From: a virus
DNA length: 64,000 bases
Strand: one strand, 5' to 3'
Virus record (IMG/VR): IMGVR_UViG_3300042475_004151
The notes beneath the pieces are model-generated. The model did not search any database, was not told the origin of the DNA, and saw only the letters and a program-made list of their open reading frames with translations. The translations under genes were made by a program, and so were the position numbers. This document shows, piece by piece, positions 4,971 to 16,490 of the stretch (position 1 is the first letter of the stretch; the number at the start of each line of letters is the position of its first letter).

Positions 4971-5708
4971 TTATTTTACTGAATTAGTTTTTAATTGATT
5001 GTCTTCTACTATAAGATATTCTCCTGATGTATCCATTGTATCTATAAAATAATATCTACCACCAGTAAATTTATCTGATCCTTTTAGGTCAAGTCGTCTC
5101 ATTTGAGTATGACCTACAATTTGAATATAATCTTTCTTTAATCCTTTATCATGTTTTTTATTTGCACTCATAAGTGAACCTGGTCTAATCCAAATTGGAG
5201 TTTGCGTTGTATTATCTCCATAACCATCAAAGCCATTAAATTCAAATGCTTTAGGTTTGTATTTAAATAGTTCATTTAAGTCAACTACAATACTCTCTTT
5301 AGACCAACCATCAGATCCAAATACTTGATCCATGAATATAGGACTTACACCAGCATGAGTGAATAGATAATCTCCGAATCCATAAGCCATTTGTAAATGA
5401 TATCTATTTTCATCTATTACTTGAGTAATTGAAGGTGCAATTCCAGATTGATATCCACTTGTACCTGTGTATCCAATTTCTGGAAAGTAGTGATGGTCGT
5501 GATTGCCAATTAATAATGTAACTTCAATTTGTGGATTATTTTCTTTGTATTGAATAATCTCTTTAAAATTATGAATTTGTTCTACTCCTGGAATATCAAA
5601 TGAATCAAAGTAGTCACCTATAAAGATAATCCTATCAGGTTGTTCCTGATGTATGGCTAGTTTCCAATTGGAACGACCATGTGTATCGCCTAATATTATT
5701 GTTTTCAT
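4971..5708 (-). CDS. Calcineurin-like metallophosphoesterase
   Basis: GDTHG, GDYFD, GNHD, THAG and GHT motifs. Confidence 0.9.
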   Translation of the reverse strand: MKTIILGDTHGRSNWKLAIHQEQPDRIIFIGDYFDSFDIPGVEQIHNFKEIIQYKENNPQIEVTLLIGNHDHHYFPEIGYTGTSGYQSGIAPSITQVIDENRYHLQMAYGFGDYLFTHAGVSPIFMDQVFGSDGWSKESIVVDLNELFKYKPKAFEFNGFDGYGDNTTQTPIWIRPGSLMSANKKHDKGLKKDYIQIVGHTQMRRLDLKGSDKFTGGRYYFIDTMDTSGEYLIVEDNQLKTNSVK

Positions 5709-12003: not shown

Positions 12004-12114
12004 TTGTTTTTTTTATATAAAAATGCTATACCAAATATAGCTGATACTACTAACACTGTTGCTACAGCAACTATATCAATTGTGTTCATATATAATTATT
12101 TATTATAAATATAG

Positions 12115-12508
12115 TGGAGGTAGTGGGATTCGAACCCACGTCTTCGTAATGAACAATAATACCAACGTCTCACACGCTTAGTACTATATTTCTATTGCAC
12201 CGTAATGGGCATGACCGTCATGGTCTGAATCCACCACTCTGTTTTATGACTACAGAGAAAACTAATTCACAGTCCTTATTTAATGAGTCGATTGTGAGTA
12301 CTCAATGAATTCTGTTCCTAGGATTTCATACCCGATGCGGACTAAGCTGCTACAGCGTAGTCGGCGCCTACGAACGCCATAAGGTCGTCGAAGGTCATTG
12401 TTGACATTTCGTCAGTTATTGTTTAGCATGGATATTAAAGAGGTTTGAACGCCTTCCCTCTGCATGTGATACTATCCTCCGATTACGAATCGATACCATG
12501 TTACCCCC
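12115..12508 (-). ncRNA. ssrA: tmRNA (one-piece, ~394 nt)
   Basis: 5' GGGGGTA pairs with 3' TACCTCC-A, giving a G3.U70 Ala identity pair. T-arm GTGGG-TTCGAAT-CCCAC. Resume context AATAACT|GAC. Tag ORF 12413..12342 encodes DEMSTMTFDDLMAFVGADYAVAA-stop. CCA is not encoded. Confidence 0.93.
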
Positions 12509-12521
12509 ATAAATTAAAGAA

Positions 12522-12989
12522 CTATTTATTCTTTCCAGTATATGTACTGGTTAGTGAATGACAGTTTGGGCATAAAAATCTTAAATTAGATAATTCATGA
12601 TTCCATGCTTTACCATCAATATGATCTAAATGTAGTGATAGTTTTTTACCTTTCCAATCTGAAATTCCACACTCATTACATTCATGAGGAATAAGATTTT
12701 CTTGTAAAATACGTTTTCTTACTGATGCTCTTGTTGCGTAGTCTTTTATATTAGTTATTCTTTTTTTAAAATCTTTTTTTAATCCCTTACCAGATTGGTT
12801 TGTGTTATAACAACCATAACCCATGGCGTATTTTCTAAAGGTATTAAAATGTAATCCTAATTTAGAAGCAGCGTGAGCCATTGATTCACTACTATTACAT
12901 ATGTCAATGAACTCTTGTTGTGGAATATTTTTAGGTTTTATTCCTAATTTTTTCCAACTGTTTGATTTTTTAGTATCATATTGTTTCAC
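12522..12989 (-). CDS. Free-standing HNH endonuclease (homing-type)
   Basis: CNECG...LHLDHIDG...N...NLRFLCPNCHS; lies between the tmRNA and tRNA-Leu genes. Confidence 0.88.
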   Translation of the reverse strand: MKQYDTKKSNSWKKLGIKPKNIPQQEFIDICNSSESMAHAASKLGLHFNTFRKYAMGYGCYNTNQSGKGLKKDFKKRITNIKDYATRASVRKRILQENLIPHECNECGISDWKGKKLSLHLDHIDGKAWNHELSNLRFLCPNCHSLTSTYTGKNK

Positions 12990-13035
12990 ATTAATAAATA
13001 TTGGTAGATACTAGAAACTAATATTTTTTTGTATG

Positions 13036-13120
13036 TACCTGGAGCGGGACTTGAACCCGCACGAGCTTTCAGCTCAAAGGTTTTTAAGACCTTCTTGTAT
13101 ACCAATTCCAACATCCAGGC
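13036..13120 (-). tRNA. tRNA-Leu (anticodon TAA)
   Basis: Acceptor GCCTGGA/TCCAGGT-A, D-loop GGAATTGGTATA, anticodon arm AAGGT-CTTAAAA-ACCTT, variable hairpin GAGC-TGAAA-GCTC, T-arm GCGGG-TTCAAGT-CCCGC. Confidence 0.95.
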
Positions 13121-13372
13121 TGGAGTGGGCCTTTCCCCACGGTCAGAAGAACTTAAAACTAACCTACGCACAGTGAGGTATTCTTCATGATTGTTCGCAT
13201 TGCCTAATCTTTGACTAGTATGACTTCGGTTGCCGTGCGTGTCAATAATTTTAGGAAAGTAGAAGATGGGTGCGTGGACATCTACTTTTACGATTGGCTT
13301 TACTTCGGTTCCTACACCTCCTTGCTTACATTCCAACTTTTTAATGAAGGTGTAAGGCTTCCCAATCAACCT
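13121..13372 (-). ncRNA. Putative structured non-coding RNA(s) between the two tRNA-type genes
   Basis: GC-elevated stretch with multiple stems: GATTGG/CCAATC, CCTTACACCTTC/GGAGGTGTAGG, AAAGTAGATG/CATCTTCTACTTT, TTGAC/GTCAA, GAAGAA/TTCTTC, GTGGG/CCCAC. Confidence 0.5.
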
Positions 13373-13390
13373 TTTGTATCTATATTTAAG

Positions 13391-13546
13391 CTGTCAAGGG
13401 AGGATTCGAACCATCCACGCTGTGATTCAATGTTGGACAAAATAGCCGGCTTGTGGTCAACCCATATCCAAACATCTATCTCAAACTCAGCGCCCACGAG
13501 ACGAGTGGGTGTGTCTACCTGCTGATCTAGCTTTCACCACTTGACA
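13391..13546 (-). ncRNA. Non-canonical tRNA-like RNA (GTC at the anticodon position) with a ~75-nt variable arm
   Basis: Acceptor TGTCAAG/CTTGACA-G, D-arm GTG..GGTAGA-CAC, anticodon arm CCCAC-TCGTCTC-GTGGG, long insert closed by CGCTG/CAGCG, T-loop TTCGAAT. Confidence 0.75.
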
Positions 13547-13831: not shown

Positions 13832-15502
13832 TTACATCATTCCCATCATATTACCCATTCCTTCATCATCTTTTTTATCTTTAGTTGGTTCCTCATATAT
13901 AACAGTTTCAGTTGTTAATATAGTACCTGCTACAGATGATGCATTTTCAATTGCTAAACGAACTACTTTAGTTGGATCTAATATACCTGCGTCAAGCATA
14001 TTAACAAATGTTTCAGTTTTTAAATCATATCCTCTCCATGTATTATCATATACATCAGTATTTGGGTCTAAAGCTGTTTTACCTAATTCATACATGTACC
14101 AACTTGGATTAGTATAACCAGCATTATCAAGTATTTGAATAAATGGAGCTGATAAAGCACTATAAATTATTTTTTTACCTGTTTTAAAATCTTCACTTTC
14201 TTCTTTACTGTATGTAATAGCTTCTCTAGCATATAATAACGCTGCTCCACCACCGGGTAGTATACCTTCTTCATTAGCGGCACGAGTAGCAAATAAAGCA
14301 TCTTCAACTCTATCTTTATATTCTTTCATATCAATCTCATTCACACCACCAACATTAATAATAGCTACACCACCAATTAATTTACCTAAACGTTCTTGTA
14401 ATTTTTCTTTTTCAAAGAATGATTGAGCATTATCAATTTGTGTTTTAATTTCTATAGCTCTAGCGGTGATTGCTTCTTCAGATCCTTTACCATCAACAAC
14501 AGTTGTTTTTTCTTTACTTACTGTTATTGTTCTAGCTGTACCTAAATAAGATGCTAATTGACTTACAGGCATTTTATCTAATTTCAAACCTTTATCTTTA
14601 GATATAACTTGACCTCCAGTAACAATAGCTAAATCTTCTAATAGTAATGTTTTACGTTCACCAAAATCAGGTGCTTTAACAGCACATACTTTAACAACAC
14701 CTCTCATTTTATTAACAATAAGTGTGGCTAGTGCTTCACCATCAATATCATCAGCTACAATAAGTAATGATTTATTCTCACTATTTACTTTTTGTAATAC
14801 ATTTAATAACTCAGCAGCTGTTGTTATACGACCATCATAAATTAATATAAATGGATCTTCTAAAACTGACTGCATTGTACTATTATTAGTGACAAAATAA
14901 GGTGATTTATATCCTCTATCAAACTGAATACCTTCTACTACTTCAAGTGATGTTTCACCTGTTTTACTTTCCTCAATAGCAACTACTCCTTCTCTACCTA
15001 CTTTATCAATAGCAGTAGCGATTAATTCACCTGTTGACTCATCATTATTAGCTGATATTGTAGCTACTTGTTTTAATTGTTCTTCAGATGAAATGTCTTT
15101 ACTATTTTCTTTTAGAGCTTTAACTACTTGTTTAACAGCAGCATCAATACCCTTTTTGATTTCAACAGCATTTGAACCTGCTCTAACACTATTTAAACCT
15201 TCTTTAATAATAGAATAAGCTAATAGTGTTGTAGTTGTTGTACCATCACCCGCAGTATTAGCGGCTTTAATGGCGGCTTGTTTAATCACCTCAGCACCTA
15301 TGTTTTCAATTGGATCCTTTAAAGTAATTGATTTAGCTACTGTAACACCATCTTTAGTTGATTGAGGTAACTCATTTTGTCTTTCAATAATAACATTACG
15401 ACCAAATGGACCTAATGTTGATACAACTGCTTGAGATAACTTTCTAGCTCCCTCAGCTAGTTTTTGTCTTGCTTCTTGATTATACTCTATAATTTTACTC
15501 AT
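13832..15502 (-). CDS. groEL: Chaperonin GroEL
   Basis: TLGPFGRNV, TKDGVTVAK, GDGTTT, GIQFDRGY, C-terminal GMGNMMGMM. Confidence 0.98.
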   Translation of the reverse strand: MSKIIEYNQEARQKLAEGARKLSQAVVSTLGPFGRNVIIERQNELPQSTKDGVTVAKSITLKDPIENIGAEVIKQAAIKAANTAGDGTTTTTLLAYSIIKEGLNSVRAGSNAVEIKKGIDAAVKQVVKALKENSKDISSEEQLKQVATISANNDESTGELIATAIDKVGREGVVAIEESKTGETSLEVVEGIQFDRGYKSPYFVTNNSTMQSVLEDPFILIYDGRITTAAELLNVLQKVNSENKSLLIVADDIDGEALATLIVNKMRGVVKVCAVKAPDFGERKTLLLEDLAIVTGGQVISKDKGLKLDKMPVSQLASYLGTARTITVSKEKTTVVDGKGSEEAITARAIEIKTQIDNAQSFFEKEKLQERLGKLIGGVAIINVGGVNEIDMKEYKDRVEDALFATRAANEEGILPGGGAALLYAREAITYSKEESEDFKTGKKIIYSALSAPFIQILDNAGYTNPSWYMYELGKTALDPNTDVYDNTWRGYDLKTETFVNMLDAGILDPTKVVRLAIENASSVAGTILTTETVIYEEPTKDKKDDEGMGNMMGMM

Positions 15503-15785
15503 AAATTGCTAATATTTCTGTTTCTTTAGTTACATAATAATCTTCTCCATCCACCATAAATGATACAGCGCCCATCTTAGGTATAAGAACTATATCTCCT
15601 GGTTTAATTTTTGAACAAACATACTCTCCTGTATGCCAATTTAAGGTGTCACTTACTGATATTACTTCTCCTATTTCTGGTTTTTCTTTTCCCATATCAG
15701 GAATTACAATATTGCCATAAGTTGTTTCTTGGTCCTCTAAAGGCTTAATAATAATGTTCCCATTTAATGGTTTTAATTTACTCAT
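15495..15785 (-). CDS. groES: Co-chaperonin GroES
   Basis: LKPLNGNIIIKP, GNIVIPD..KEKP; directly upstream of groEL. Confidence 0.93.
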   Translation of the reverse strand: MSKLKPLNGNIIIKPLEDQETTYGNIVIPDMGKEKPEIGEVISVSDTLNWHTGEYVCSKIKPGDIVLIPKMGAVSFMVDGEDYYVTKETEILAIYE

Positions 15786-15808
15786 AATACTTTATTTTAA
15801 TTAATATA

Positions 15809-16018
15809 CTAATTTTTTGTCTCATAGCCAAGCACTTCAGCTTCTTCTATTTCTTCTAGAAAAAATAAATAACCATCTTTTCTTAAAACTTTATTTGATC
15901 CTATCCATTTCATCATAGTGTCTAATGGTTCACCAGTGTATTTAGGATCATCTATAACACGACGTTTTAAGATATAAAGTTTATCTTGGAATGGAATAAG
16001 CTGGGTTGGTATTAACAT
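15809..16018 (-). CDS. Hypothetical protein
   Basis: ORF within the chaperone operon. Confidence 0.55.
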   Translation of the reverse strand: MLIPTQLIPFQDKLYILKRRVIDDPKYTGEPLDTMMKWIGSNKVLRKDGYLFFLEEIEEAEVLGYETKN

Positions 16019-16046
16019 AACAGAGTTTTGGTAGGTCTCGTTTTAA

Positions 16047-16490
16047 TTATCCTTGTAATAAGGATTTATTGTTTGATTTGATTTCAACTTTTTTAGGTGC
16101 TTTATCAGCTGAATAAGGAACATCAATGATTAATAATCCTTTATCCAATGTAGCATCTAATTTGCTTAAATCAAGTTTAGATGATATTTTCCACGCTAAA
16201 TCAAATGAGCGTTTAGCTATACCTTTTTGGTAGTATGCTTCAAGTGGAATATCACTTTCCTTTTTTTCGTGTTTAATTCTTAATGTATCTGATTCTGTTT
16301 GTATATCTAGATCTTCTTTGTCTAGACCAACTACTGCGAGTTCAAATCGTAACCCGTTTTCTGTCTCGTAGATATCAACTGGGTAGTTGATTTTAGCGTC
16401 AATTGTGTTTTGAAACTTACTGTTTTGGTCAAAAAAATTCTTCCAAAAAATGTCAATTGGGTCTGTTTCCCAATGGGATAAATATGTCAT
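16047..16490 (-). CDS. Small heat-shock protein Hsp20 (IbpA-like)
   Basis: YPVDIYE...LAVVG...KGIAKRSF...LDKGLLII alpha-crystallin pattern. Confidence 0.92.
   Translation of the reverse strand: MTYLSHWETDPIDIFWKNFFDQNSKFQNTIDAKINYPVDIYETENGLRFELAVVGLDKEDLDIQTESDTLRIKHEKKESDIPLEAYYQKGIAKRSFDLAWKISSKLDLSKLDATLDKGLLIIDVPYSADKAPKKVEIKSNNKSLLQG

Follow-up and report, generated by a model that had tools for sequence, protein, structure and literature searches.

Staphylococci have tRNA-Gly species that serve peptidoglycan bridges and are charged but kept from the ribosome, and tmRNA and YrlA are tRNA mimics that carry added domains. Allo-tRNAs, nev-tRNAs and selC-like tRNAs join a long variable arm to an anticodon that mismatches their class II body, and GUC is among the common anticodons of the allo-tRNAs (PMC5389517, PMC7609411, PMC3333845). 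Here we compare with these systems an element on the minus strand of a 64,000-nucleotide stretch of viral DNA (the window; IMG/VR virus record IMGVR_UViG_3300042475_004151), which a prediction made from the window sequence alone (the original prediction) had described as a tRNA-like RNA with a giant variable arm and a non-canonical anticodon loop. The element belongs to a family of tRNA-shaped RNAs, hitherto undescribed, that Bacteroidota and phages share. We propose, by analogy, that it would work most like the non-proteinogenic tRNAs and the substrates of transamidation, as a member of no described family.

Several identity rules of bacterial tRNAs bear on the comparison. The aspartate identity set comprises G73, G10, G34, U35, C36 and C38 (PMC9976931, Table 1), and even minimal tRNA-Asp variants still depend on G73 and the anticodon (PMC9976931). 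G73 blocks the leucyl- and tyrosyl-tRNA synthetases (LeuRS and TyrRS); the seryl enzyme (SerRS) depends on a large variable region and G73, its other determinants being C72, C11-G24 and G30-C40 (PMC9976931). The pair U1-A72 is a determinant of the tRNA-dependent amidotransferase and G1-C72 an antideterminant; for bacterial U1-A72 the table of the same work lists tRNA-Gln only, while its text adds tRNA-Asn (PMC9976931).

Homologues and covariation

The element is a real, selected RNA structure. The window sequence alone could not show the cloverleaf to be meaningful, since its single-sequence fold is no better than those of shuffles (z = -0.43) and neither ARAGORN nor Rfam calls it. ARAGORN made no call at the element in the window or on 32 loci that carry it, and Rfam 15 gave no match to it at the gathering threshold or at E <= 10 in the window, or at E <= 1 in three bacterial loci.

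Homologues were collected by pattern. Exact matches in IMG/VR to a pattern of the T arm and the 3' strand of the acceptor stem gave four loci, in which compensatory changes were already visible; scans with a pattern of the variable-arm apex gave 76 loci, 71 of them genuine, and a pattern of the anticodon-type arm added 30 further genuine loci with variant apices. In a collection of species-representative genomes the apex pattern matched 39 times, the number expected by chance, and 11 of these matches hold the whole element. Six come from metagenome-assembled genomes (MAGs) of Saprospiraceae, two from unclassified Bacteroidota and one each from a Lewinella and a Flavobacteriales MAG; the remaining one, a copy of the phage type, lies on a 518-bp contig that was binned with an alphaproteobacterium. 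Together, the 111 loci (about 100 IMG/VR contigs and the 11 genome records) yielded 90 distinct sequences, mostly from phages, which form alignment A1.

RNAalifold folded this alignment into a cloverleaf with a long, interrupted arm, in which 28 of the 38 pairs show compensatory double changes. Standard pairs occupy 97.5% of the cells, a share that falls to 41-49% if the 3' partners are shifted by 1-3 columns; covariation scores 0.519 versus at most 0.12, and none of 500 shuffles reached the observed values. Every helix is supported by covariation, including the acceptor stem (six of seven pairs), the D stem, the T stem and three helices of the arm, and the middle pair of the anticodon-type stem takes five forms across the family (A-U, U-A, U-G, G-C and C-G). 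The apical sequence UUGACCAC is invariant also in loci that were found by a pattern not containing it. With 90 distinct homologues, compensatory changes and both kinds of control, the element is more than a chance fold.

These data refute the reading of the locus as a decayed or insertion-disrupted tRNA pseudogene, or as a tRNA from which the insert is spliced out, to which we leave next to no probability. Silence of the tRNA finders and of Rfam is what a pseudogene would produce, but the family is under massive purifying selection with compensatory changes and is conserved from phages to bacterial chromosomes. The original prediction had looked to a dearth of covarying homologues as the mark of decay, and they abound; it had also considered splicing to a normal tRNA, yet the element stripped of its arm would still have a non-canonical loop, and the shortest natural forms, of 110 nt, keep both the long arm and the odd loop.

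A blastn search of the element against 50,697 GenBank phage records returned two chance-level matches only, so at that sensitivity it is not present in isolated phages and has no likeness to RNAs of T4-type coliphages. A full-text literature search found no description of the RNA. The phages that carry it probably infect Bacteroidota.

Architecture of the element

RNA positions 1-73 correspond to window positions 13546-13391, and the parts of the molecule are listed in Table 1. What the original prediction had seen in the letters was borne out: a 7-bp acceptor stem with U1-A72 and G73, a D arm expanded by a small hairpin, an anticodon loop without U33 and purine 37, a bulged T stem and a variable arm of about 75 nt closed by a 5-bp stem. 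The bulged U of the T stem recurs in eight other members of A1, and U8 and G9 are present as well. From its basal 5-bp stem the variable arm proceeds through a 5' bulge, a 3-bp stem, a conserved internal loop and a long stem to an apical domain.

Table 1. Parts of the tRNA-like element and neighbouring features, in window coordinates.
Feature	Position	Strand	Evidence or remark
Whole tRNA-like RNA, positions 1-74 (73 nt in tRNA numbering, inserts and C74)	13390-13546	-	Covariance model R1: 153 bits, E 4e-40
Acceptor stem, 5' strand (U1 to G7)	13540-13546	-	7 pairs, 6 with compensatory changes; 100% of cells paired
D arm: 3-bp class II (tRNA-Leu-like) stem, enlarged loop with G18 G19	13511-13537	-	D-stem pairs covary
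Hairpin inserted in D loop (3-bp stem, 5-nt loop)	13521-13531	-	Missing from bacterial and 142-nt phage forms
Anticodon-type arm, 5-bp stem	13493-13509	-	Loop UCGUCUC 13498-13504; GUC 13500-13502
Giant variable arm, 75 nt	13418-13492	-	Consensus helices 4-6: compensatory changes in 14 of 18 pairs
Invariant UUGACCAC of apical hairpin: two G-C pairs, UUGA loop, bulged A	13453-13460	-	Flanking pairs covary (by reading of the sequences)
Perfect 8-nt palindrome, core GCCGGC, 3' strand of variable arm	13444-13451	-	Palindrome enrichment at the insert site
T arm: 5-bp stem, one bulged U, canonical T loop	13399-13416	-	4 of 5 pairs with compensatory changes
Acceptor stem, 3' strand (13392-13398), discriminator G73 (13391), C74 (13390)	13390-13398	-	No encoded CCA
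tRNA-Leu(UAA)	13035-13120	-	ARAGORN and Rfam; 270 nt downstream of the element
Phage tmRNA	12112-12508	-	Rfam RF00023, 84 bits; ARAGORN 12114-12508
HNH homing-endonuclease gene	12522-12989	-	Between tRNA-Leu and tmRNA
Spacer, 270 nt	13121-13390	-	From the element to tRNA-Leu
GroEL, GroES and Hsp20 genes	13832-16490	-	In a row adjoining replication genes

The body appears to derive from a class II tRNA resembling tRNA-Leu. With bacterial tRNA-Leu it shares the 7/5 geometry of acceptor and T stems, a 3-bp D stem, a D-loop sequence of the tRNA-Leu type, a long arm between the anticodon and T stems and a canonical T loop, and its 5' half shows what we take, from the sequence and from E. coli tRNA-Leu, to be the tRNA-Leu pattern of the D arm. 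It differs in having G73, an antideterminant of LeuRS, rather than A73, in GUC and U37, and in an arm that is two to eight times longer and has junctions of its own. The Rfam tRNA model RF00005 does not recognise it despite the cloverleaf with its 7-bp acceptor stem, 5-bp T stem, U8, G18 G19 and T loop.

Other described RNAs resemble the element in single traits. Like the allo-tRNAs, nev-tRNAs and selC-like tRNAs it has a long arm and an anticodon mismatching a class II body, but allo-tRNAs have 8/4 or 9/3 geometry and normal anticodon loops, whereas the element has 7/5 geometry and U37. It lacks the 8/5 geometry and the UCA anticodon of tRNA-Sec, having instead GUC and a 7/5 geometry supported by covariation. 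Like tmRNA and YrlA it is a tRNA mimic with an added domain, and it is co-located with a phage tmRNA; tmRNA, however, has G3-U70 and a tag reading frame, while the element has U3-A70, no tag frame and an AUG in the arm that is not conserved, and tmRNA models match the window only at the tmRNA gene. The element keeps a D arm and an anticodon-type arm, its ends form a tRNA acceptor stem and not the Ro-binding stem that marks YrlA, and it has no Rfam match to either family. The staphylococcal tRNA-Gly species, with which we would compare it in being charged and held off the ribosome, are of normal size and have a normal anticodon loop.

Conserved positions and aspartate identity marks

Conservation was counted over 157 distinct sequences (90 + 67). 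U1-A72, G73 and C74 are present in all 157 and U8 is likewise invariant; G2-C71 is found in 97% and C38 in about 92%. GUC occupies positions 34-36 throughout, save for UUC in two copies that stand in tandem in one genome. About 97% of the sequences have U at position 37, the four exceptions having A (three) or C (one), and one of the A37 members has the canonical loop CUGUCAC. At position 33 the bacterial copies have U and most phage copies have C (71 of the 90 sequences of A1), and at position 10 G prevails in the phage set (84%) but A in the bacterial copies (88%). The pair 11-24 is U-A in 82 of the 90 A1 sequences, and 30-40 is A-U, U-A or U-G.

The family therefore has G73, G34, U35, C36 and C38 in common with bacterial tRNA-Asp, as well as G2-C71 and, in most phage copies, G10; GUC and G73 had been picked out as aspartate identity elements in the original prediction, and both, with C38, stand in the published set (PMC9976931). 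Because the never-varying marks form this set, we tentatively favour, with somewhat less than even confidence, the reading that the element is a non-decoding tRNA-like RNA recognised by the aspartyl-tRNA synthetase (AspRS), and perhaps by the amidotransferase GatCAB via U1-A72. Genuine tRNA-Asp of the same genomes is unlike the element, with G1-C72 (three host genomes and four phages; ARAGORN), A37, a short variable loop and a 4-bp D stem, and it is the invariance of U1-A72 beside a G1-C72 tRNA-Asp that makes a GatCAB substrate possible. Phage tRNA-Asn also has G1-C72 and tRNA-Gln has U1-A72; a strict pattern search for host tRNA-Asn gave no match. The element shares both U1-A72 and G73 with the GatCAB substrates tRNA-Asn and tRNA-Gln, but differs from them in its aspartate anticodon and class II body, and amidation is a candidate step only. 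For such substrates U20a in the D loop is an antideterminant; in a class II body with inserts, D-loop numbering is ambiguous. A class II body, the aspartate identity set, U1-A72, a non-decoding loop, a modular arm and an AsnC-like regulator (the last two described below) are not known together.

Canonical tRNA-Asp(GUC) coexists with the element both in bacteria and in phages with full tRNA sets, so the element is an additional species and not an odd version of the decoding tRNA-Asp. It was already taken for something other than an ordinary decoder in the original prediction, and nearly all members indeed lack purine 37, as most phage copies lack U33. That it nevertheless decodes, as a class II tRNA for GAY codons charged by AspRS, or by SerRS via the long arm, and used in normal or altered decoding, seems to us very unlikely. 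Its U8, G18 G19 and T loop make up the full tool kit of the L shape, U33 is kept in the bacterial copies, A37 occurs in three members, and SerRS relies on a large variable region and G73, both of which are present. Against this stand the prevalence of U37, C33 in most phage copies, the bulged T stems of some members and the canonical tRNA-Asp alongside. With tRNA-Ser the element also shares G2-C71, but C72, C11-G24 and G30-C40 are missing.

Distribution in bacteria and an AsnC-like regulator

Genome samples were searched with covariance model R1 at a threshold of E <= 1e-12. Matches were found in 40 of 61 sampled genomes of Saprospiraceae (the family of one MAG), in 14 of 151 sampled Bacteroidota genomes and in none of 151 sampled Pseudomonadota, the phylum of Nevskia soli. 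The bacterial copies are 110-213 nt long, often stand in tandem arrays of two or three and adjoin ordinary chromosomal genes; several of the sampled genomes with a copy are complete. If this comparative picture holds, the element is an abundant, overlooked RNA gene of two thirds of the sampled Saprospiraceae, of other Bacteroidota and of a large freshwater phage group, some of whose contigs measure 180-320 kb, and it is missed entirely by standard tRNA and Rfam annotation. Such genes are now annotated as empty spacers, and the element merits an Rfam family and a name.

Upstream of the RNA, at a distance of 150-550 nt and on the opposite strand, seven of the ten phylum-sample loci have a gene of about 156 amino acids, as does the Flavobacteriales MAG. 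Its product is a regulator of the Lrp/AsnC family, for which the best NCBIfam model is AsnC at 162-167 bits, with other models at 82 bits or less. Orthologues of this regulator (at least 52% identity) are present in 16 of the 151 sampled genomes, among them all 14 RNA-positive ones; one of the other two has the RNA at a contig end beside the regulator, and in the last the RNA was not found within 2.5 kb of it. Thus 15 of the 16 genomes with an orthologue carry the RNA and none of the other 135 do, the best match to the regulator in those being at most 46% identical or nothing. In ten genomes the two genes are neighbours in divergent orientation, 150-550 nt apart, although their regulators are 46-76% identical and the outer neighbours differ. 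Since adjacency and co-occurrence persist despite such divergence, gene content and order give good evidence that the RNA and the AsnC-like regulator are functionally tied, most simply in that an amino-acid-sensing regulator would control transcription of the RNA gene.

The two UUC copies (contig L212, 1570-1680 and 1792-1901) are 110 nt long with the loop CUUUCUC, that is, a Glu anticodon, and they still adjoin the AsnC-like regulator. Regulator loci that do not adjoin the RNA showed no Asn-related neighbours. The RNA-positive genomes are without asnA; the idea that the RNA replaces asnA next to asnC was dropped, the 40% paralogues of the regulator in GatB-less genomes not lying beside asnA.

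This distribution bears on the notion, put forward in the original prediction, of a phage decoy for anticodon nucleases or for TGT. A role as decoy or sponge, in which the element would engage a tRNA-Asp-directed enzyme such as an anticodon nuclease, TGT or some other modification enzyme and so protect or titrate the real tRNA, would explain a tRNA-Asp-like anticodon stem-loop on a body that does not look like a decoder, and counter-defence tRNAs occur in other phages, with which carriage in phage tRNA clusters would fit. We consider it distinctly unlikely: the RNA is a chromosomal gene in two thirds of the sampled Saprospiraceae and in other Bacteroidota, with ordinary neighbours and an amino-acid-type regulator to which it appears tied, and a decoy accounts for neither U1-A72 nor the arm. 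TGT moreover requires U33-G34-U35, a motif that C33 removes from most phage copies.

Variable arm modules and palindromes

Members of the family differ widely in the length of the variable arm, which can be as short as about 33 nt or exceed 130 nt. All arms share a conserved base, built of a basal stem, a bulge of 4-5 nt on the 5' strand, a short stem and an asymmetric internal loop, and the apex is modular: the shortest forms (110-125 nt) end in a plain hairpin, many others, including that of the window, carry the UUGACCAC hairpin, and many bacterial forms have an additional hairpin 5' of the latter. Minimal forms do without the UUGACCAC module. Tandem paralogues combine near-identical tRNA-like bodies with quite different arm inserts, as in contigs L151 (1272-1422 and 1501-1642), L173 (three copies) and L212 (two copies).

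Two inserts of the phage copies are mostly missing in bacteria, namely the D-loop hairpin and a segment on the 3' strand of the arm. Perfect palindromes of at least 8 nt occur in 45 of 75 D-loop inserts (3.5% of shuffles), and palindromes of at least 6 nt in 76 of 86 arm inserts (21% of shuffles), where 12 different ones occupy a single site. Several are too short to form hairpins, so selection seems to target self-complementarity itself, as it might if one RNA copy paired with another or if a DNA-level process were at work.

The arm is the basis of the main rival to recognition by AspRS, a scaffold or carrier in which the tRNA body provides processing, a fold and a CCA end while the arm domain binds a protein or ligand or self-associates through its palindromes. 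We hold this to be possible, if on balance doubtful. Modular apices on otherwise identical paralogues, the internal loop conserved at the base of every arm and the strong enrichment of self-complementary inserts at two sites all suit it, and engineered tRNAs tolerate aptamer-tagged variable arms (PMC7590224). A mere scaffold, however, needs no invariant GUC, C38, G73 and U1-A72 across phages and bacteria, and the minimal forms, with almost no cargo, are still conserved and tandemly duplicated. The related suggestion of the original prediction, a carrier for the inserted hairpin, agrees with the modular arm.

Three further ideas about the apex were tried. An antisense seed was given up, the complement of the UUGACCAC region being found nowhere else in the window, as was a mini open reading frame (AUG GGU UGA), whose AUG is not conserved among variants. 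A codon mimic, in which an apical GAC would pair with GUC, is weakened by the C of GAC lying in a covarying 2-bp stem and further by minimal forms that keep GUC without the apex.

A possible mode of action

On the AspRS reading, the phage element would be transcribed as part of a tRNA/tmRNA cluster. In 100 viral loci it always lies on the same strand as the neighbouring tRNAs, and in about a third of them a tRNA is no more than 10 nt away, typically a tRNA-Ser(UGA) 5 nt upstream or a tRNA-Leu(UAA) 5-10 nt downstream. This spacing is the layout of a polycistronic tRNA precursor, from which we infer that RNase P and the 3' processing enzymes would excise the element and that the CCA-adding enzyme would complete its end after C74, as for its neighbours. 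AspRS would then bind and probably charge it via G73, G34-U35-C36, C38 and G2-C71, and its exclusion from decoding would be due to U37, C33, the bulged T stems and the arm. GatCAB could amidate the aspartate to asparagine on the RNA through U1-A72. In bacteria, the coupling to an AsnC-like feast/famine regulator points to a possible amino-acid-responsive role, and the variable arm would be a modular add-on domain for some partner. Processing and charging lie one step from the sequences, amidation and a metabolic role two. A theme of Asp/Asn and Glu/Gln would accommodate both the AsnC-like regulator and the one lineage with UUC (Glu-type), and the amino-acid-donor idea of the original prediction comes close to the reading that we prefer. 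The element would make it possible to test how a tRNA serves outside decoding, be it as carrier of an amino acid, as sensor or as scaffold.

Several observations weigh against recognition by AspRS and what might follow from it. Aminoacylation is deduced from identity rules set in other bacteria, and G10, a determinant of Asp identity in E. coli, is replaced by A10 in 88% of the bacterial copies. AspRS approaches its tRNA from the variable-loop side, where a large arm might clash, and the conserved arm and its palindromes are left without a role. In one genome UUC replaces GUC. All 14 RNA-positive genomes have GatB, but so do 126 of the 151 irrespective of the RNA, and being nearly universal in the phylum it says little by co-occurring. 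AsnRS and AsnB-type synthetases both occur in five RNA-positive genomes, which therefore have no need of an RNA-borne route to Asn; no AsnB was found in the phage fragment. The scores of the regulator fall below the NCBIfam AsnC equivalog cut-off of 227, its 40% paralogues are not beside asnA, and, in a count over genomes with no taxonomy attached, shared ancestry may contribute to its co-occurrence with the RNA.

A more elaborate version can be imagined, which we regard as unlikely. The element would be a dedicated aminoacyl carrier, charged by a discriminating AspRS, amidated to Asn by GatCAB, unusable by the ribosome and placed under AsnC-type control, with the UUC lineage converting Glu to Gln; phages whose proteomes are very AT-rich and Asn-hungry would carry copies, and the phage inserts would self-pair into dimers or larger RNA-only assemblies.

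Neighbouring genes and RNAs in the phages

The source record is 72 kb long, an estimated 44% complete and about 29% G+C, and a search of it with R1 found one copy of the element, which starts 4 nt past the stop of a 76-amino-acid open reading frame. Nearby are genes for a T4-like family B DNA polymerase, a sliding clamp, GroEL, GroES and Hsp20, the last three standing in a row (Table 1). A tRNA-Leu(UAA) is near the element in 42 related loci, often 5-10 nt away, and a tmRNA often lies 0.3-2 kb from it in related phages, which raises the question of why phages carry the element beside tRNAs and tmRNA.

The tmRNA of the window has an unusually long tag, DEMSTMTFDDLMAFVGADYAVAA; related phages have either this long type or short tags such as ANEYALAA. 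Part of the HNH homing-endonuclease gene is about 71% identical in DNA to HNH genes of T4-like coliphages, and the remainder of the window matches no isolated phage at the DNA level. No credible gene lies in the 270-nt spacer that separates the element from tRNA-Leu; an open reading frame at 12986-13369 crosses the tRNA-Leu gene. Sequence from the beginning of this spacer is found again 3' of the element in phage contigs L065, L144 and L146, and the spacer is probably another small RNA of this RNA island.

A 12-nt motif, CTGAACACAGTG, directly follows the 3' end of the element in about 14 phage loci (L003, L012, L021, L038, L045, L050, L065, L070 and L140 among them), and past it come more conserved non-coding blocks, one of which begins with TAGCCCGCAGGCCACGG; the motif and the blocks suggest more undescribed RNAs in the tRNA islands. 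A phage contig with a minimal form of the element (L067) has an ARAGORN tRNA-SeC(UCA) at 5575-5661, adjoining tRNA-Cys and tRNA-Met. A different motif, GAAGCTCA, lies 3' of the element in a bacterial contig (L098, 6447-6490) and in phage contigs L027 and L042; in the bacterial contig it occupies the loop of a terminator-like hairpin that is followed by a run of T.

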